Of a stretch of DNA of 64,000 nt, positions 3,177 to 33,167 are shown piece by piece (positions within the stretch are counted from its first letter, which is position 1; each line of letters starts with the position of its first letter). The notes beneath the pieces were generated by a model. That model had not been told where the DNA came from and did no database searches. It worked only from the letters and a program-made list of their open reading frames with translations. The translations under genes were made by a program, and so were the position numbers. Source of the stretch: a virus; IMG/VR virus record IMGVR_UViG_3300004805_000006, positions 1-64,000 of that record. One strand, 5' to 3'.

Positions 3177-3554
3177 ATGAAAAAATTAATTTTTATTTTA
3201 TTATTAATACCATCTCTTATCTATGCTTTAGACTTTGGTATGGACAAATCAGTCATCAGTTTTAAATCATCATCCTCAATAACAGATGAGGAATACGATA
3301 ATATAAAACAGTTACTATCAAGTGGACATATTTATACAATAAGAGTTGGAAAAGAAGCTGATAAATATCGTATAAATGATATACTAGATTCTGATGTAGG
3401 TATTAAATTAAAAATTATCAGCGTCAAAAGAATAAAAAATATAAAAGAATACAGATTTTATGATAATCTATCATCAGAATTAATAGACTATCTAAATAGG
3501 TTTGATAAAATAGATATTCTTAAACTAGAAAAAGTTAAGGACAAAGATATATGA
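3177..3554 (+). CDS. Hypothetical secreted protein
   Basis: GGAGGT RBS, signal-peptide-like MKKLIFILLLIPSLIYA; the track start at 3087 overlaps the tRNA. Confidence 0.7.
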   Translation: MKKLIFILLLIPSLIYALDFGMDKSVISFKSSSSITDEEYDNIKQLLSSGHIYTIRVGKEADKYRINDILDSDVGIKLKIISVKRIKNIKEYRFYDNLSSELIDYLNRFDKIDILKLEKVKDKDI

Positions 3555-3790
3555 AAAGTTTATATCATGATAAAGATGAAACCTATTTGGATGATGCCCG
3601 TAATTTAGAAGAAGAAACTGCAAATGCAATTCAACCAATTCTAGAAAAATATGCTGCCATGAATTACCCAGTTCGTCAAATTTCACAAGTAATGACTTGG
3701 GCAGTAGAGATGGTTGAAGGAATATTTATTATGGAAAGGAATGGAAAGGTACAAAAACATGACAGAAACAAAGACATCATTAATGCTTGA
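3551..3790 (+). CDS. Hypothetical protein
   Basis: ATGA-coupled ORF. Confidence 0.6.
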   Translation: MKSLYHDKDETYLDDARNLEEETANAIQPILEKYAAMNYPVRQISQVMTWAVEMVEGIFIMERNGKVQKHDRNKDIINA

Positions 3791-4652
3791 TACAGAAAAA
3801 TTTATGGTGGGATATAACTCTGCTTCATATAATGTAACTTATGAAGTATTCAAATCTGATATTGATACAACAGAAATACCTACTATTAAAGCCCATAGGT
3901 TATATAAACAAAGGGTAATTAAAGAAGCTCAGTCATGTTTTTCAGGATTTGTTAGTAGTTATTTGTCATACACTACAACAAATAAAGTAAGTCCAAATAG
4001 ATTACGTTTTTTCTGTAACTATCAAAAACATGACAAGAAAAATACCCACTTAACAAAAGATGAAATAGAATTTTGGGTAGAATTATGCAAACAAAATAAA
4101 TTGATGCCTGAAAATATCGGTAAAAATTTTATAGAGAACGGTATTTATGACATACATTTTGAAGATATTTCTATGGATATGATGTATGTTTATCTTTGCG
4201 CGGCTAGATATCTTCAAGAAGAGCCATTCTTTGTAAGAGGTATCATACACTTAATTAAAGATAATGGACTAGGATTTTTTACAGCATTTGGAATAGCCTC
4301 TTACTATTTAATAACTAATGCTGCTCATCATATACTTCCTATATCCAGGGATTATAGAGCTTGTATGTATGTACGTTCAAAAAGTATAAATGCTCCCAAA
4401 AAAGGAGATTTTGGTAGTTCTTTTGACTTAATTTATATTCCAAGATTAGTAAATTTCTTATATGGTGGTGACGCAGGTAAGCATATCAAAAATATAGCAG
4501 TAATTAAACACGCTACTTATAGTTTACATTGTAATATGAAATTTTATTGGGATAAAAATTACCCTACAACTTATATTGTTAATAGGGAAGACTTGACAAA
4601 CACTGATTTAGAACCTATGTTAAAAGCTGGAGAGTTTGCAAAACCAGTGTAA
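3714..4652 (+). CDS. Hypothetical protein (true start probably ~3759-3783)
   Basis: Long ORF with no confidently recognised motif. Confidence 0.7.
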   Translation: MKEYLLWKGMERYKNMTETKTSLMLDTEKFMVGYNSASYNVTYEVFKSDIDTTEIPTIKAHRLYKQRVIKEAQSCFSGFVSSYLSYTTTNKVSPNRLRFFCNYQKHDKKNTHLTKDEIEFWVELCKQNKLMPENIGKNFIENGIYDIHFEDISMDMMYVYLCAARYLQEEPFFVRGIIHLIKDNGLGFFTAFGIASYYLITNAAHHILPISRDYRACMYVRSKSINAPKKGDFGSSFDLIYIPRLVNFLYGGDAGKHIKNIAVIKHATYSLHCNMKFYWDKNYPTTYIVNREDLTNTDLEPMLKAGEFAKPV

Positions 4653-4660
4653 ATTTTTTA

Positions 4661-4733
4661 GTCTCTGTAGCTCAGTGAATAGAGCAAAAAACTTCTAATT
4701 TTTAGGTCGCAAGTTTGAATCTTGCCAGAGACA
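4661..4733 (+). tRNA. tRNA-Arg(TCT)
   Basis: GTCTCTG/CAGAGAC; AAAAA-CT TCT AA-TTTTT; GCAAG-TTTGAAT-CTTGC. Confidence 0.9.
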
Positions 4734-4753
4734 CAAGAAAGGAAAATTAAATA

Positions 4754-4996
4754 ATGAAAACATTGAAATGCCATGAAATTAGTAAAGGAATGAGAGTAGT
4801 ATTAACTGCACCTGATAATAGTTATAATATTAATGAAACTAATCCAGAAGTTGGTACAGCGTGGGAATGTATAGGCACTGTAGCATCCTGTAGTAGTGGT
4901 AGTATTAGTGTTGTATGGGATAATGGATGTTCTAATTCTTACAAAGATAATGAACTTTCTGCATCGTATGAAGGAAGATGTAAATCAATTTGGTAA
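4754..4996 (+). CDS. Hypothetical protein (SH3-like, V.WDNG motif)
   Basis: GMRVV...GTV...ISVVWDNG..NSY. Confidence 0.6.
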   Translation: MKTLKCHEISKGMRVVLTAPDNSYNINETNPEVGTAWECIGTVASCSSGSISVVWDNGCSNSYKDNELSASYEGRCKSIW

Positions 4997-28742: not shown

Positions 28743-28955
28743 TTATTTAAAAAAATTCATTATATATTTTAAAATATTTTCATCCAAGATAGTATATTCA
28801 TCAAATATGAATATCAAAGTTAATGTAACAATAGGACCTATAATAAGCACTGCTATATTAATACCTAATAAAAATCCTTTCCATGCTATTTTTTCTTCTT
28901 CTGATAAATGTTTGTTAAAAATTCCTTTGGATATTTTTTTTAATGTTATATACAT
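28743..28955 (-). CDS. Small membrane protein
   Basis: One hydrophobic helix. Confidence 0.55.
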   Translation of the reverse strand: MYITLKKISKGIFNKHLSEEEKIAWKGFLLGINIAVLIIGPIVTLTLIFIFDEYTILDENILKYIMNFFK

Positions 28956-29311
28956 GAGAGCCTCTTTATCTCATTTAAAAAATCACCATACCCAAATGGT
29001 TTATCAAACCAACTATCAAATCCTGCAAGATGGAAATTACTGCTATTAATAAGGTCACTATATCCAGATAATGCTATTATTTTTACTTCTTTGTCTATCT
29101 CCCTGATTTTTAAACAAAATTCTAATCCATTCATTTTAGTTAAACCTATATCGGTTATTATTAAATCGTATTTACCAGGTTCAAAAAGTTCTAACGCTTC
29201 TTCTGCAGACCCAACATCATCTAATAATTCTATTCCAGCTATATGTCTAACAATAGAACGTAATAATATTCTACCACTTTCATCATCTTCTACAATTAGA
29301 ATTTTTTTCAT
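28946..29311 (-). CDS. Stand-alone response-regulator receiver (CheY-like)
   Basis: ILIVEDD, DLIITDIGL..MNG, IIALSG, KPF. Confidence 0.92.
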   Translation of the reverse strand: MKKILIVEDDESGRILLRSIVRHIAGIELLDDVGSAEEALELFEPGKYDLIITDIGLTKMNGLEFCLKIREIDKEVKIIALSGYSDLINSSNFHLAGFDSWFDKPFGYGDFLNEIKRLSCI

Positions 29312-29334
29312 GACTACCTCCTAATTTAATTTTA

Positions 29335-29406
29335 AGTCCGTGACATGGATCGAACCTGCATGAACCATTTTCGTAAAATGGGGCTACTCCTTTTAGCTAC
29401 ACGGAC
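29335..29406 (-). tRNA. tRNA-Arg(ACG)
   Basis: GTCCGTG/CACGGAC; CCATT-TT ACG AA-AATGG; imperfect T stem. Confidence 0.8.
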
Positions 29407-29411
29407 ATTAG

Positions 29412-29491
29412 TACCCAAGAGAAGATTTGAACTTCCATACCTATTGGCACAGTTTCTAAGACTGCTGGCTATACCGTTCGCCTACTTGGGC
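29412..29491 (-). tRNA. tRNA-Leu(TAG)
   Basis: GCCCAAG/CTTGGGT; GCAGT-CT TAG AA-ACTGT; variable arm. Confidence 0.88.
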
Positions 29492-29513
29492 ATTTTATAT
29501 ATATAATATTTTA

Positions 29514-29581
29514 TGCGGGAGAGGGAATCAAACCCCCTAAAACTGATTTATGAGACCAGTACGAATATCAATTCTTCCCGC
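29514..29581 (-). tRNA. Compact tRNA with CAT anticodon (Met or Ile2)
   Basis: GCGGGA/TCCCGC-A; D arm GAAT-TGAT-ATTC; CTGGT-CT CAT AA-ATCAG; 68 nt. Confidence 0.7.
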
Positions 29582-29586
29582 AATAT

Positions 29587-29985
29587 CTATTCAAAATCTA
29601 AATCCATGCCAGGATTAGTAATTGATTCTTCTACTAATTTTTTAGTGAACGCAAATTCTGGTGAATCATATAATTCTTGCATATCTAAAGTTAAATAACT
29701 ACTTGTTTCCTTTTTCTTATCACTTGCTCCTGGGCAACCCATCTTTTTTCCTTTACGCATAACACAACTTCTAATCTTTGCTTTAGTTGCGTCAGAAAAC
29801 TTTGAACGGTTTAAAAGCCTAAGTGCTGCTGTATAATGAATACAATCAGGAACTGGAAAACTGCGTTCAGGACCACAATAAGTACTTGATTTTAAAGCTT
29901 TTCTATCCTTAGTAGTTAAAACTTTAGCTATTTCTAAAGCCTTCTGTGCCCTCTTAATGGCTGAATTTAAACTATCTATTTCCAT
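29587..29985 (-). CDS. Hypothetical basic protein
   Basis: AAGGAGG RBS; R..LKSS.YCGP.RSFPVPD..H..AAL motif. Confidence 0.75.
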   Translation of the reverse strand: MEIDSLNSAIKRAQKALEIAKVLTTKDRKALKSSTYCGPERSFPVPDCIHYTAALRLLNRSKFSDATKAKIRSCVMRKGKKMGCPGASDKKKETSSYLTLDMQELYDSPEFAFTKKLVEESITNPGMDLDFE

Positions 29986-30001
29986 ATTTCCTCCTTAAAT
30001 A

Positions 30002-30031
30002 AAGGTAGAGAGGATAATATCTCTCTACCTT
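30002..30031 (-). terminator. Hairpin downstream of the micropeptide array
   Basis: AAGGTAGAGAG/CTCTCTACCTT. Confidence 0.6.
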
Positions 30032-30055
30032 GTAAGGTTACATTATTATTTCAAA

Positions 30056-30094
30056 TCATTTTGGTTTCGGTTTCGGTTTTGCCTTGCATCCCAT
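30056..30094 (-). CDS. Micropeptide MGCKAKPKPKPK
   Basis: AAAGGAGGTGA RBS 7 nt before ATG; TGA stop. Confidence 0.7.
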   Translation of the reverse strand: MGCKAKPKPKPK

Positions 30095-30136
30095 TAATCA
30101 ATCACCTCCTTTTCCATTATTTAATAATATTAAAAA

Positions 30137-30175
30137 TCATTTGGGTTTTGGTTTCGGTTTTGCCTTGCATCCCAT
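30137..30175 (-). CDS. Micropeptide MGCKAKPKPKPK
   Basis: Same RBS; differs from the neighbouring copy only at synonymous Pro codon positions. Confidence 0.7.
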   Translation of the reverse strand: MGCKAKPKPKPK

Positions 30176-30217
30176 TAATCAATCACCTCCTTTTCCATTA
30201 TTTAATAATATTAAAAA

Positions 30218-30268
30218 TCATTTGGGTTTTGGTTTTGGTTTTGGTACTGGTTTTGTAGTTCCGCCCAT
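30218..30268 (-). CDS. Micropeptide MGGTTKPVPKPKPKPK
   Basis: AGGAGGTGA RBS; TGA stop. Confidence 0.7.
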   Translation of the reverse strand: MGGTTKPVPKPKPKPK

Positions 30269-30285
30269 TATAAGTCACCTCCTAA

Positions 30286-30870
30286 TTAATATTTATTAAA
30301 AATGTTTTGAAAAGCTTCATAATATGGACCAGGTGTTTGTTTATCTATCCACCCTATCATTCTTCCCCCACGACTTAATATTCTAGAACAAGCCGTAGAC
30401 ATATCCGCTATTAATGGTAATGTTTCATCGTCAATTATATTATAACAGTCTATAAAAATAAAATCATATTTTTTATTTGTTTGATAAGCATACTCAATGC
30501 CGTCAGAATGTAAAATTCTATGTTTTTCTGGAGTATATGATAAATCTAATCCTCTATCTTCTTCTTTTATCTTACCACATACCTTTATAACATCCATATT
30601 ATTTTCTACTGTAGTTACATGCGTAACCTTAGGAAATGTTAATAGATACCTAGAAACTATACCTAACCCTAAACCTACGTCTAAACAATTTCCTTTTGGA
30701 AAGTCAGATATCTGACGCATATAATCTACAAGTTCGCCTTCAGCACAACATAGAGTATGACCCGTACCCACCTCAAGAAATAGTTCTCTGTTCATTTTAT
30801 AAACTCTAGCTTTGCCATGTTCAGCTATCATTTCACCATCTTTAAAATAAATAAGTCCCTTTTTAGTCAT
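30286..30870 (-). CDS. Class I SAM-dependent methyltransferase (spermidine-synthase-like)
   Basis: CLDVGLGLG, VTTVENN.DVI, SDG, YDFIFID. Confidence 0.82.
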   Translation of the reverse strand: MTKKGLIYFKDGEMIAEHGKARVYKMNRELFLEVGTGHTLCCAEGELVDYMRQISDFPKGNCLDVGLGLGIVSRYLLTFPKVTHVTTVENNMDVIKVCGKIKEEDRGLDLSYTPEKHRILHSDGIEYAYQTNKKYDFIFIDCYNIIDDETLPLIADMSTACSRILSRGGRMIGWIDKQTPGPYYEAFQNIFNKY

Positions 30871-30888
30871 TATAACTCCTAAAAATAT

Positions 30889-31182
30889 CTATTCTACTCG
30901 TGGTTTAGTAATATCAATTGGTTTATCAAACTTTAGATCAATTGTTAAAAGTACACCACCTTTAAGTATTGGGTCTTTGACATCACCACTCTCTAAAGTT
31001 TCAATAATATGAGCGTAATACCCAACATTAATATTAGATTTTTTAGATATTGGTATATAAATATCTAGAGCAGCATTAACTTCTGACCTAACCCAATTAG
31101 CCCAAGCCTGTATTTTTTCTTCTTCGGTTAATTCACTAATATTTTGAACTACATCCATTTCCTGATCAGATACTTCTACCAT
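30889..31182 (-). CDS. Hypothetical protein
   Basis: AAGGAG RBS, coupled ORF. Confidence 0.65.
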   Translation of the reverse strand: MVEVSDQEMDVVQNISELTEEEKIQAWANWVRSEVNAALDIYIPISKKSNINVGYYAHIIETLESGDVKDPILKGGVLLTIDLKFDKPIDITKPRVE

Positions 31183-31703
31183 GATTGATCTCCTTTATCT
31201 ACTTGTTTACCCTGTTTAGACATTTCTTTTTCTTGGTCATAAACATCATTAACTAATGTAGCAAGTTTAAACTTCCAATCTGGATCATCTACATTACACT
31301 GTTGTTCCATTCTAAAATCTGATAAATCATGAGGCAAAAGTTTAATTTTATCTTGCTCGTCGATAAAAATATGTCTTAATTCATGTGACATAATTCTTTT
31401 TCTATCTGCGGCATTAGCTAATTCCCAAGTTTTTTGATCAAAAACAATAATAACATCATACCCATCTGTCGCAATATCATCCTTAGAGAAGAATTTAATT
31501 TTATCAGATGATACTTCAGCGCTTGCTAATATTACTTCACCTTGTTTAATTCTTCGTTTAGTATCAAAAATTAATTTAATTTTTAATTGCGCCAAATTAG
31601 GAAATCTTTCTTCCATTACCGATAAAAAAACTTCAACTACATCATCATCAACATCTGTAAATCTAATCATAATCCTTCTCCTTTTAAACGTGATAGTTAG
31701 CAT
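31176..31703 (-). CDS. Putative phage metallopeptidase (probable start MIRF at 31670)
   Basis: W......R...MSHELRHI...PHDL.DF. Confidence 0.75.
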   Translation of the reverse strand: MLTITFKRRRIMIRFTDVDDDVVEVFLSVMEERFPNLAQLKIKLIFDTKRRIKQGEVILASAEVSSDKIKFFSKDDIATDGYDVIIVFDQKTWELANAADRKRIMSHELRHIFIDEQDKIKLLPHDLSDFRMEQQCNVDDPDWKFKLATLVNDVYDQEKEMSKQGKQVDKGDQSW

Positions 31704-31932
31704 TAATATGATTTTTAAGTTCTAGTAGACTATCTACTAACCTATAACTCATATCAACTTGTTTTTTATTTTTTTCGTCGCTATTAGCATTTAATTGTTT
31801 TTCTATTATAATGCCACCAGAAAAAGAGTTTCCACTTTTATCGTAGCAAAGACGAATAGATTTGCCATTTTTTAATTTTTTTATTCTAACTCTTCCACCA
31901 TTATTTACACATTCTTCGAAATCCTTCCTCAT
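31684..31932 (-). CDS. Hypothetical protein
   Basis: AGGAGG RBS. Confidence 0.65.
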   Translation of the reverse strand: MRKDFEECVNNGGRVRIKKLKNGKSIRLCYDKSGNSFSGGIIIEKQLNANSDEKNKKQVDMSYRLVDSLLELKNHINANYHV

Positions 31933-31991
31933 TCCAATCCTCCTAAAGTTAATTATTAATATTTACTATTGGTTAATTCTAACTTATCTTA

Positions 31992-32019
31992 AAGATAAGC
32001 ATCATTTACTAAATGTCAA
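31992..32019 (-). promoter_or_regulatory. Promoter TTGACA-N16-TATCTT
   Basis: Same spacing as the other copies. Confidence 0.6.
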
Positions 32020-32362
32020 GGTTTAAATTATAAAAAATTTCAGTATTAAATGGTGCAGATATAGCATTAGGAATTAAACTTTTAATAATAGCTGAAGCTG
32101 GAATATTCCATGAGTGGATTATAGTAATAGCTGTATTATTAAAATTACGTGGATTATTTTTTAAAAATTTTGCCACATCAATACCCTTACCATTACCTTT
32201 ACCAAGATCGTTGTCTAGGAATAAGTAATCAAATTTATAACACTGCAAATATTCTATAGCATTAATAGCATTTTCAGTTATTTTTAAATTGTATTGTCCA
32301 AAACGTTCTACAAAAAATCTTACCCTAAATACATCATCTTCAAGTACCATTATGTGTGTCAT
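32009..32362 (-). CDS. Receiver-like domain (cyclic-phosphate-processing REC type)
   Basis: MVLEDD..R, FDYLFLDNDLG, G.DVA, IIHSWN. Confidence 0.75.
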   Translation of the reverse strand: MTHIMVLEDDVFRVRFFVERFGQYNLKITENAINAIEYLQCYKFDYLFLDNDLGKGNGKGIDVAKFLKNNPRNFNNTAITIIHSWNIPASAIIKSLIPNAISAPFNTEIFYNLNLDI

Positions 32363-33167
32363 GTATTTTACCTGTTATATTGGTAATATTGGTAATAGTA
32401 GAAATAAATAAATCACTTTTTTTAATTTGCACGGCTTTTAAAAACACATCTAGTACTTTACCATCTTTAGTTACAAATTGTGTTTCTATTTCTCCTACTC
32501 CAGTTTCTTTTATCTGTTTATATTTTAATTCACCCACACGTTCAAATTCATCATCTGTTAAGTAATATAATCGCGTAGATTTATTTAATAATTCTTCTTT
32601 AGTATAACCAAGTAAATCTAAAAGATACTGATTAGTATTAATTAATATTCTTTTACCACTATTACCCTCTATAAGTACTATACCTATAGGAGTAGCATTA
32701 AATAATGCATCTAAAGTTGCTTCTCTACATGTTAGATCTTCTAAAGCTTTCTTTTCTACTGTTATATCTTTTAATACATGTATAAAACCTAAAAGTTGAT
32801 TACTATGAGAATAAATAGGGGATACAGTTACATCAAACCAACCAGTTAATTTTTTTATATAAATATCTTTTACTATTCTACTTGGTTTACATACGCTATA
32901 ATCATAAATACTTAGGCTTGACAAAACATCTTGTGGATAAACCTGTATTTCTTCGTAACAAATCTTGTCATAAAGTTCCTCTTTACTCTTTTTTAATCTT
33001 GTAGATAAAATCTCATTAACAAATTTTATTTCAAGTTTATTATTTATTATATAGATACATTCTGGTATTGCATCTAAAGCGTATTCCCACATCTTTGCCT
33101 GGTCTCTAAGATACCCATTTTTAGTCAGTGCCTCAGTTAGTTCTCTAAGTTTTTTTAGTTCGTCCAT
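32340..33167 (-). CDS. Tandem PAS-domain protein with no output domain
   Basis: ALDAIPECIYII...IKFVN...SPI....GFIHVLKDIT; LFNATPIGI...N....LLGYTKEEL...TKDG. Confidence 0.85.
   Translation of the reverse strand: MDELKKLRELTEALTKNGYLRDQAKMWEYALDAIPECIYIINNKLEIKFVNEILSTRLKKSKEELYDKICYEEIQVYPQDVLSSLSIYDYSVCKPSRIVKDIYIKKLTGWFDVTVSPIYSHSNQLLGFIHVLKDITVEKKALEDLTCREATLDALFNATPIGIVLIEGNSGKRILINTNQYLLDLLGYTKEELLNKSTRLYYLTDDEFERVGELKYKQIKETGVGEIETQFVTKDGKVLDVFLKAVQIKKSDLFISTITNITNITGKIHDTHNGT

Follow-up and report, generated by a model that had tools for sequence, protein, structure and literature searches.

Can very short Lys-Pro repeats in phage DNA be genes for peptides, and if so, what could such peptides do? 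The question is raised by a tandem array of three tiny open reading frames (micro-ORFs) in the IMG/VR virus record IMGVR_UViG_3300004805_000006, positions 1 to 64,000 of which form the 64-kb stretch analysed here (the window). The array lies between the gene for a spermidine synthase-like enzyme and a conserved gene for a protein of 132 amino acids (aa). Our analyses suggest that the micro-ORFs belong to a recurrent group of polycationic micropeptide genes in tailed phages, and we tentatively propose that their products act as counter-ions of nucleic acid.

A tandem array of Lys-Pro micro-ORFs

The micro-ORFs, the enzyme gene and a hairpin that closes the array are all on the minus strand. Coordinates are positions in the 64-kb window; lengths are in nucleotides (nt) or base pairs (bp).

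30870..30286, minus strand: enzyme ORF, 194 aa (194 codons, ending in TAA)
30275..30282, minus strand: Shine-Dalgarno site of micro-ORF 1, GGAGGTGA, one of only three copies in the window
30268..30218, minus strand: micro-ORF 1, 16 residues plus stop, MGGTTKPVPKPKPKPK
30183..30190, minus strand: Shine-Dalgarno site of micro-ORF 2, a copy of GGAGGTGA
30175..30137, minus strand: micro-ORF 2, 12 residues plus stop, MGCKAKPKPKPK
30102..30109, minus strand: Shine-Dalgarno site of micro-ORF 3, a copy of GGAGGTGA
30094..30056, minus strand: micro-ORF 3, 12 residues plus stop, MGCKAKPKPKPK
30044..30205, minus strand: two full 81-nt tandem units (site, ORF and spacer); a third, diverged unit extends to ~30283
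30002..30031, minus strand: hairpin with an 11-bp stem, closing the array; the outermost base pairs extend as far as the ribosome site of the following gene
29587..29985, minus strand: conserved downstream gene, 132 aa, phrog_16160, with a Cys/His motif around TTKDRK...CGP...DC.H

ORF, repeat and pattern scans confirmed the layout given in the original prediction, i.e., three tiny minus-strand genes within an 81-bp repeat. Tandem Repeats Finder reported a period of 81, 2.4 copies and 97% matches; identity between the two full 81-nt copies was 94%, and the third copy was diverged. The coding pattern for (Lys-Pro)3-Lys occurred three times in the window, compared with 0.00 in 100 shuffles. As had been noted, micro-ORF 1 starts 17 nt past the enzyme stop codon, the same position at which relatives carry a small basic ORF, and the two 12-residue copies differ only at synonymous third positions of Pro codons, of which we found two. 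Each of these peptides has five Lys among 12 residues and no acidic residue, and hence a high positive charge density. The near-perfect, properly spaced ribosome-binding sites were also recovered. There were exactly three copies of GGAGGTGA in 64 kb, each of them 6-7 nt 5' of a micro-ORF ATG (mean of 0.70 in shuffled controls, with 5 of 100 shuffles reaching three). Because this sequence was found there alone, before the three ATGs, the ribosome sites of the micro-ORFs are the strongest in the window. The array is predicted to consist of three separately initiated genes for polycationic peptides of 12-16 residues.

The strong hairpin expected at the end of the array (30031..30002) was predicted to fold with -20.4 kcal/mol (z -3.8), and none of 200 shuffles folded as well. 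It lies 23 nt past the last micro-ORF stop. A simple terminator scan called no site in 29000-32000, hairpin included, and Rfam matched no known RNA family in the array, only the neighbouring tRNAs.

Conservation of the micro-ORFs

Among loci with homologues of the enzyme, the closest (L002, 77% protein identity) contained a single MGCKSKPKPKPK ORF followed by a similar hairpin (-19.5 kcal/mol, z -3.3). Micro-ORF 3 of the window and the L002 ORF are identical at 36 of 39 nt (92%), and the differences are two synonymous changes and one Ala-to-Ser replacement. In the surroundings, identity was 80% in the enzyme gene, 17/34 in the upstream flank and 46/88 in the downstream flank. A second pair, from an unrelated lineage (L107 and L109), gave 46/48 nt within the micro-ORF, with one synonymous and one Lys-to-Arg change, compared with 55/126 upstream and 40/95 downstream. 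In both pairs, the micro-ORF appears as an island of conservation in which the changes spare the peptide. The micro-ORFs look like real, selected genes, in agreement with the earlier suggestion that standard annotation misses them; gene callers do not see genes as short as 12-16 codons.

Cys-headed (Lys/Arg-Pro)n micro-ORFs in other phages

We scanned a viral contig collection with patterns that did not require Cys and with one that demanded it, and assigned the neighbours of the resulting look-alikes by PHROGs. The phages identified were unrelated and had 34-60% G+C. Their loci are as follows, with genes in order.

L026, MGCGGSRKPKPKPKPK: portal, peptide, scaffold
L046, MACKPKPKPKPK: major head protein, immunoglobulin-like tail protein, 151-aa protein, peptide, the ATG of which overlaps the preceding stop
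L107, L108 and L109, MACKPKGKGKKPKPK (one Lys-to-Arg change in L109): portal, peptide, scaffold and, further on, major head protein; in L107, a terminase gene precedes portal
L112, MGCKPKPKPKPR: terminase, peptide, portal
L119 and L128, MDKCKPKPRPKPR: in L128, portal/minor-head fusion, peptide and, further on, protease and major head protein
L043 and L052, Cys-less: portal and, further on, 301-aa protein, peptide, major head protein
L122, L134 and L138, Cys-less: peptide ~1 kb upstream of terminase and portal
L028, Cys-less: similar in style
L110, Cys-less: peptide near a virion structural protein

The 301-aa protein in L043 and L052, which belongs to an unnamed family and weakly matched a protease, was taken as occupying the scaffold position. 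Among the loci found by scans that did not demand Cys, L026, L046, L112 and L119/L128 each had a ribosome site or a TAATG/ATGA overlap with a neighbouring gene. The Cys-demanding scan added L107, L108 and L109, and all six of its matches were in frame. A Cys residue was present within the first four residues in 5 of the 9 lineages found without asking for Cys; by a rough estimate, this share is far above what chance would give from so few non-repeat residues. Cys-headed (Lys/Arg-Pro)n ORFs with ribosome sites were thus observed in at least five unrelated phage lineages, among terminase, portal, scaffold and capsid genes. The strict pattern was also run, as a control, against 185,579 prokaryote species, each represented by one genome, and had no match there; a relaxed pattern gave seven stretches in prokaryote genomes, five out of frame and two in frame, none with a ribosome site.

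One candidate explanation for the L026 micro-ORF, read-through from the portal gene, was rejected: the micro-ORF is in frame with the portal stop, for which the chance is 1 in 3, but it has its own ATG and ribosome site, and the micro-ORFs of other lineages are out of frame.

These sequences point to a putative micropeptide class with a Met-Gly/Ala-Cys start (or Cys in the first four residues), a (Lys/Arg-Pro)n body and a terminal Lys or Arg, which is recurrent and previously unannotated. A literature search found no description of phage (Lys-Pro)n micropeptides, subscription journals being outside its coverage.

A possible role as nucleic acid counter-ions

As a possible function, we tentatively favour that of nucleic acid counter-ions, made in bulk, which aid condensation or packaging of the genome. 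This proposal draws on the composition of the peptides, the dosage signals, the gene context in other phages and the physics of polyvalent cations and packaged DNA. The peptides would be produced in large amounts and would bind nucleic acid as a gene-encoded analogue of polyamines. Regularly spaced Lys residues on a stiff Pro backbone could screen the phosphate charge of DNA during condensation, during packaging or inside the head, and the Cys may permit disulfide pairing or tethering outside the reducing cytoplasm. It is possible that the upstream enzyme has a part in this polycation economy by acting on polyamines or Lys side chains, although its direct action on the micropeptides is not supported (see below). 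The presence of a polyamine-family enzyme next to the array, and of other polycationic ORFs in the same slot in relatives, fits a shared polycation theme. One report describes condensation of DNA by multivalent cations and polyamines to a density like that in phage heads, with lowered capsid pressure (PMC2771126). Neighbours with head or packaging functions were found in L026, L107-L109, L112, L128, L043/L052 and L046, mostly on short contigs biased towards such hallmark genes, and are not evident in the window. Of the roles suggested originally, that of polycationic DNA condensers fits this gene context, whereas that of substrates in a system resembling ribosomally synthesized and post-translationally modified peptides (RiPPs) was not borne out.

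A wider scenario, which we consider unlikely as a whole, is that many tailed-phage lineages encode Cys-headed "peptide polyamines" of 12-20 residues. These would be loaded at packaging, replace or supplement host polyamines and become disulfide-locked outside the cell. The phage studied here would have amplified them threefold beside an N-methyltransferase that tunes the same polycations, possibly the Lys amines of the peptides themselves. Basic genome-condensing peptides and polyamine counter-ions are already known; to these, Cys-headed (Lys/Arg-Pro)n micropeptides encoded directly by tailed phages would add a further variant. If the counter-ion proposal is true, the peptides would be a new, genetically tractable component of the phage head, relevant to the way in which phages handle DNA charge and capsid pressure, above all in fresh water with few ions, and they would offer a simple natural design for DNA-condensing peptides.

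Several observations weigh against the counter-ion proposal. First, many (AAACCN)n runs are plainly non-coding repeats. Among 46 (Lys-Pro)3-Lys-stop stretches, 20 had no start codon and 5 were tails of ORFs longer than 45 residues, and 22 of the 42 new stretches from a second scan also had no start codon. Second, the peptides are short and of low complexity, so their common descent is unprovable. Third, the Cys-bearing look-alikes sit on contigs of 4-8 kb that are 8-22% complete, and the association with head modules is inflated because short contigs get called viral by their terminase, portal and capsid genes. Longer records (L052, 38 kb, and L110, 73 kb) still show micro-ORFs amid structural genes, unlike the window and L002. 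The array of the window is not among recognised head genes, and the nearest structural-gene match is a tail-fibre-like ORF ~25 kb away. Fourth, (Lys-Pro)n ORFs are confined to the sub-clade of the window and L002, so they are not core to this phage group.

Codon use adds to these points. CCG or CCC accounts for 5 of the 11 Pro codons in the array, compared with 10% of Pro codons in the long ORFs of the window (CCG at the first Pro is also present in L002), and such atypical codons are odd for bulk expression. Contigs of two metatranscriptome runs (X8 and X16, from one study) span the micro-ORFs and the 3' end of the enzyme gene, and one RNA-library contig runs across the hairpin into the next gene; these represent presence in libraries, which can hold DNA, and define no transcript ends.

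A possible translated effector with another target

A less likely possibility is that the peptides are effectors that bind host RNA, ribosomes, an anionic host protein or a defence component during host take-over. The array is located in what resembles a translation-related island: the window contains ten tRNA genes and a transfer-messenger RNA (tmRNA), and five of the tRNAs, one tRNA-Pro being among those of the window, lie less than 3 kb from the array. The maximal ribosome sites and tandem amplification would suit a dose-dependent binder. Like many accessory and arms-race genes, the micro-ORFs are young, specific to one lineage and possibly variable in copy number. However, the look-alikes elsewhere occur in packaging and head modules, not in early regions, and to our knowledge the micropeptides contain no motif of known ribosome-targeting proline-rich peptides.

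A spermidine synthase-like enzyme upstream of the array

The third possibility involves the upstream enzyme. Its original description as spermidine synthase-like was supported by Pfam (27.2 bits against PF01564, cut-off 22.9), by a profile of 31 family members that matched Escherichia coli SpeE among solved structures (3o4f, E 2.1e-9) and by its predicted fold. The AlphaFold (AF2) model had a mean confidence (pLDDT) of 91.3, and its top Foldseek matches were all spermidine/spermine synthases (E 1.6e-9, TM score 0.64). The enzyme scored far below the NCBIfam cut-off for curated aminopropyltransferase equivalogs (33.8 bits for the best model, cut-off 260).

The methyltransferase part of that description comes from individual residues. 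The Asp of the Gly-rich loop in SpeE, which binds decarboxylated S-adenosylmethionine (SAM) and repels SAM, aligns to Leu69 of the phage enzyme, and this Leu is invariant in 31/31 family members. The catalytic, amine-activating Asp141, which aligns with the Asp of the SpeE motif after strand 4, is likewise invariant in 31/31. In a report on plant spermidine synthase (PMC3725402), the loop Asp contacts the amine group of decarboxylated SAM and presumably keeps SAM out. The same report describes an Asp-to-Ile replacement that abolished spermidine synthesis and conferred putrescine N-methyltransferase activity (PMC3725402). Because the cofactor-selecting Asp is lost and the amine-side Asp is kept, we assigned SAM-dependent N-methylation to the enzyme; it is probably an amine N-methyltransferase derived from spermidine synthase. 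It resembles putrescine N-methyltransferase in its SpeE-type fold, the hydrophobic residue (Ile there, Leu69 here) in place of the loop Asp and the retained catalytic Asp, but differs in being just 194 aa long and in its low scores against aminopropyltransferase models. The SpeE alignment covers residues 61-172 of the query and 86-195 of the 294-residue chain, leaving ~20 enzyme residues after it, and this short C-terminal part might leave a more open site. We found 174 relatives, the closest reaching 98% identity; a protein search of cultured phages gave one weak match and nothing else. If confirmed, this family would represent a compact branch of the spermidine synthases that is specific to phages and has an altered cofactor site.

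The slot after the enzyme and the enzyme-substrate hypothesis

The original prediction regarded the locus as a dedicated operon of an enzyme and its multicopy substrate, in which the enzyme methylates or aminopropylates Lys or N-terminal amines of the peptides as a minimal modified-peptide system. We now consider this reading improbable. We collected 52 loci with enzyme homologues (23 viral and 29 metagenomic) and scanned 42 of them. Five loci in which the enzyme runs off the contig end (L082 and L094-L097), one with little downstream sequence (L084) and four equal to L010 (L011-L014) were dropped, and L001 (28% identity) was outside this count. The test that had been proposed, a search for (Lys-Pro)n ORFs linked to the homologues, was positive in 1 of the 42 loci, namely L002. 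In four relatives, one of them a complete 296-kb genome, (Lys-Pro)3-Lys stretches were absent throughout the records. Conversely, two near-complete phage records with (Lys/Arg-Pro)n micro-ORFs contained no enzyme homologue (0/2; positive control, 3/3).

Evidence for the enzyme-substrate hypothesis, besides the 17-nt distance to micro-ORF 1, comes from other basic ORFs in the same slot. A small, strongly basic ORF with a ribosome site was present within 60 nt past the enzyme stop in 10/42 loci. For the remaining ORFs of 100 aa or more in these loci, the corresponding count was 3/243, and for such ORFs in the rest of the window it was 1/66; one of the ten slot ORFs (L009) is probably an overlapping-frame artefact. 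Enzyme and downstream gene are both retained in 20 syntenic loci; of these, 9 had a polycationic ORF in the slot, through which an enzyme/polycation link is possible, but 11 had nothing convincing. Three compositional types fill the slot: (Lys-Pro)n, Gly/Arg-rich proteins of ~50 aa, and one Lys/Arg-rich ORF without a ribosome site. The retained amine-activating Asp141 and the short C-terminal part, which might open the active site, also agree with action on a peptide.

However, the receiver protein, an 82-aa gene, the metallopeptidase, a 97-aa gene, the enzyme, the slot and the downstream gene are collinear across relatives. Because this whole block is vertically inherited, adjacency alone says little: the association reflects descent as much as function, and the enrichment counts relatives, not independent events. 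In addition, the micropeptides have no leader peptide, with just 3-7 residues before the repeat, and no RiPP-type recognition or export component was found. The count of 1/42 loci, the two micro-ORF records without the enzyme and the synteny of the block all go against a dedicated operon.

Eight of the ten slot ORFs form one family of Gly/Arg/Lys-rich proteins of 45-57 residues, located as follows in their contigs.

L004, 3589-3753: Gly/Arg-rich slot protein
L072, 587-724: Gly/Arg-rich slot protein
L073, 3089-3256: Gly/Arg-rich slot protein
L074, 3087-3227: Gly/Arg-rich slot protein
L075, 3088-3261: Gly/Arg-rich slot protein
L076, 3089-3250: Gly/Arg-rich slot protein
L077, 905-1045: Gly/Arg-rich slot protein
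L081, 888-1028: Gly/Arg-rich slot protein

The match of this protein to DUF5320 (PF17253) was below threshold (16.6 bits, gathering score 27), and only its N-terminal motif resembles that domain. A search for a copy elsewhere in the 72-kb contig found none and gave only low-complexity, Gly-rich matches. Exact look-up of four slot proteins (46-55 residues) found three on record, all nameless beyond "hypothetical protein"; the L073 sequence occurred exactly on 21 contigs in the protein collection under the same label. The look-up has a limit of 20 residues, under which the micropeptides (12-20 residues) fall. A predicted complex of a relative's enzyme with its 55-residue Gly/Arg-rich neighbour scored 0.01 (mark 0.32), which gives no verdict either way. 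The Lys/Arg-rich ORF (L006 3533-3652, 39 residues) shares sequence with the end of the enzyme gene, lacks a ribosome site and shows a weak match (E 0.04) to COX24_C, the C-terminal domain of a mitochondrial small-subunit protein family.

Explanations without a peptide function

It is also quite improbable, somewhat more so than the enzyme-substrate hypothesis, that the peptides have no function, the array being a young hexanucleotide expansion with an 81-nt duplication and a chance start signal, or an element acting at the DNA or RNA level. The frequency of (AAACCN)n as a non-coding repeat (20/46 and 22/42 stretches without a start codon), the atypical codon use and the limitation of the array to one sub-clade agree with such an origin. 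On the other hand, the ORF is better conserved than its flanks in two lineage pairs (and better than the enzyme gene between the window and L002), with synonymous or conservative changes. Cys occurs next to the start in 5/9 lineages found without demanding it, the Cys-based scan gave 6/6 matches in frame compared with 2/7 in the prokaryote control, and no Rfam family matched.

Finally, it is very improbable that the micro-ORFs are cis-acting leaders, whose translation through Lys and Pro codons would sense tRNA or elongation status and set read-through of the hairpin into the downstream gene: the array does end 23 nt before a stable hairpin that touches the ribosome site of the next gene, and rare Pro codons (CCG and CCC) are kept, L002 included, in a phage with its own tRNA-Pro. 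Against this, the ORF is present in triplicate and every copy has a maximal ribosome site, a single hairpin was predicted and folding gave no competing structure, and a ribosome halted at the last micro-ORF stop would barely reach the hairpin. The look-alikes are flanked by structural genes, with stop and start codons that overlap, and lack hairpins of this kind, and it is the peptide composition, not the nucleotides, that is kept across lineages.

Comparison with known systems

Protamines and the small, basic core peptides and proteins of DNA viruses of eukaryotes have a very high positive charge density, and the viral ones are virus-encoded and thought to condense the genome. They are Arg-rich, longer or cut from precursors, and were shown in virions. 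In contrast, the peptides described here are Lys-Pro repeats, predicted to be direct translation products of 39-51-nt genes of tailed phages, and no homology is claimed. Polyamines such as putrescine and spermidine are likewise small flexible polycations with regularly spaced amines, and a polyamine-family enzyme adjoins the array; however, polyamines are metabolites, whereas the micropeptides are predicted to be ribosomally made, are 12-16 residues long, carry a charge of about +5 to +6 and contain Cys.

(Lys-Pro)n spacers and DNA-binding motifs of the Ser/Thr-Pro-Lys-Lys type occur as segments of large proteins, in which alternating Lys and Pro form an extended, stiff cationic strand; in the array, the repeat is nearly the entire gene product. 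Systems of the microcin C type have a gene of a few codons with its own ribosome site beside a SAM-using tailoring enzyme. The array is similar in that tiny ORFs with ribosome sites stand beside an enzyme of a SAM-dependent class, but no adenylating (ThiF/E1-like) enzyme, immunity gene or exporter was found among the neighbours scanned, and in composition the peptides are unrelated.

The downstream gene

The 132-aa protein encoded after the hairpin contains conserved Cys and His residues, and in several relatives it itself starts with Met-Gly-Cys. Searches with this protein gave nothing significant in Pfam, among solved structures or by Foldseek against PDB, and a protein search of cultured phages gave no match. 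At least 242 long phage proteins (311-2000 aa) contain its phrog_16160 domain within their sequence. All nine of these fusions that we tested matched phrog_16160, eight also matched an unnamed family N-terminal to it, and two showed a weak head-maturation-protease match. The best match of the 132-aa protein among BFVD predicted structures was to a protein of 650 aa that bears the name prohead protease (37% identity, E 1e-3). These matches provide a lead that the downstream neighbour of the array may be head-associated. Identification of a long fusion protein as a cargo protein of crAss-like phages was rejected (E 0.38, insignificant). DUF5824 was present in 7 of 120 listed fusion proteins.

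The downstream gene was interrupted in three relatives just after the Cys/His motif (L006 and L019, and at a nearby site in L076). In L006, the interruption (3789-4111) is a group I intron with 57.4 bits, above the Rfam gathering score. L019 has an insert at ~3800-4850 with a 284-aa ORF, and the interruption in L076 spans ~3400-4350.

Genomic and environmental setting

The window has 30% G+C and also encodes ribonucleotide reductase, DNA polymerase, ligase, a Lon-like protease and a tail-fibre-like gene. The source record is a virus fragment of 72,452 bases. Because relatives reach 296 kb with terminal repeats, the phage is regarded as a giant phage. A DNA search of cultured phages found no match to the window, and a protein search with the DNA polymerase gave distant matches only and no clue to the host. 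A 2-kb stretch of the window was present, in whole or in part, in public freshwater and lake runs of 12 studies.

Around the enzyme, the collinear block at 28946-33167 contains two receiver-domain proteins, a PAS protein and a putative phage metallopeptidase (PF18894), the last of which was located upstream of the enzyme in 26 of the 52 loci. A third tRNA-like element directly follows the downstream gene (29513-29582, minus strand); it scored 28.8 bits against an Rfam gathering score of 29, and ARAGORN made no call.

Contigs from three of four runs compared (one RNA and two DNA) were without exactly one 81-nt unit (30068-30150), which leaves a two-gene array. This form may represent natural copy-number variation or assembly collapse of the repeat. 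Uncovered parts of the window and very deep contigs of 36-49 nt on the repeat were treated as uninformative. In three runs, low-depth contigs matched only micro-ORF 2 and its start region (30135-30179), with 5 differences in 43-45 nt, and then diverged into unlike sequence that again opens with a strong ribosome site. These partial matches hint at other lake phages with the same micro-ORF in another context.

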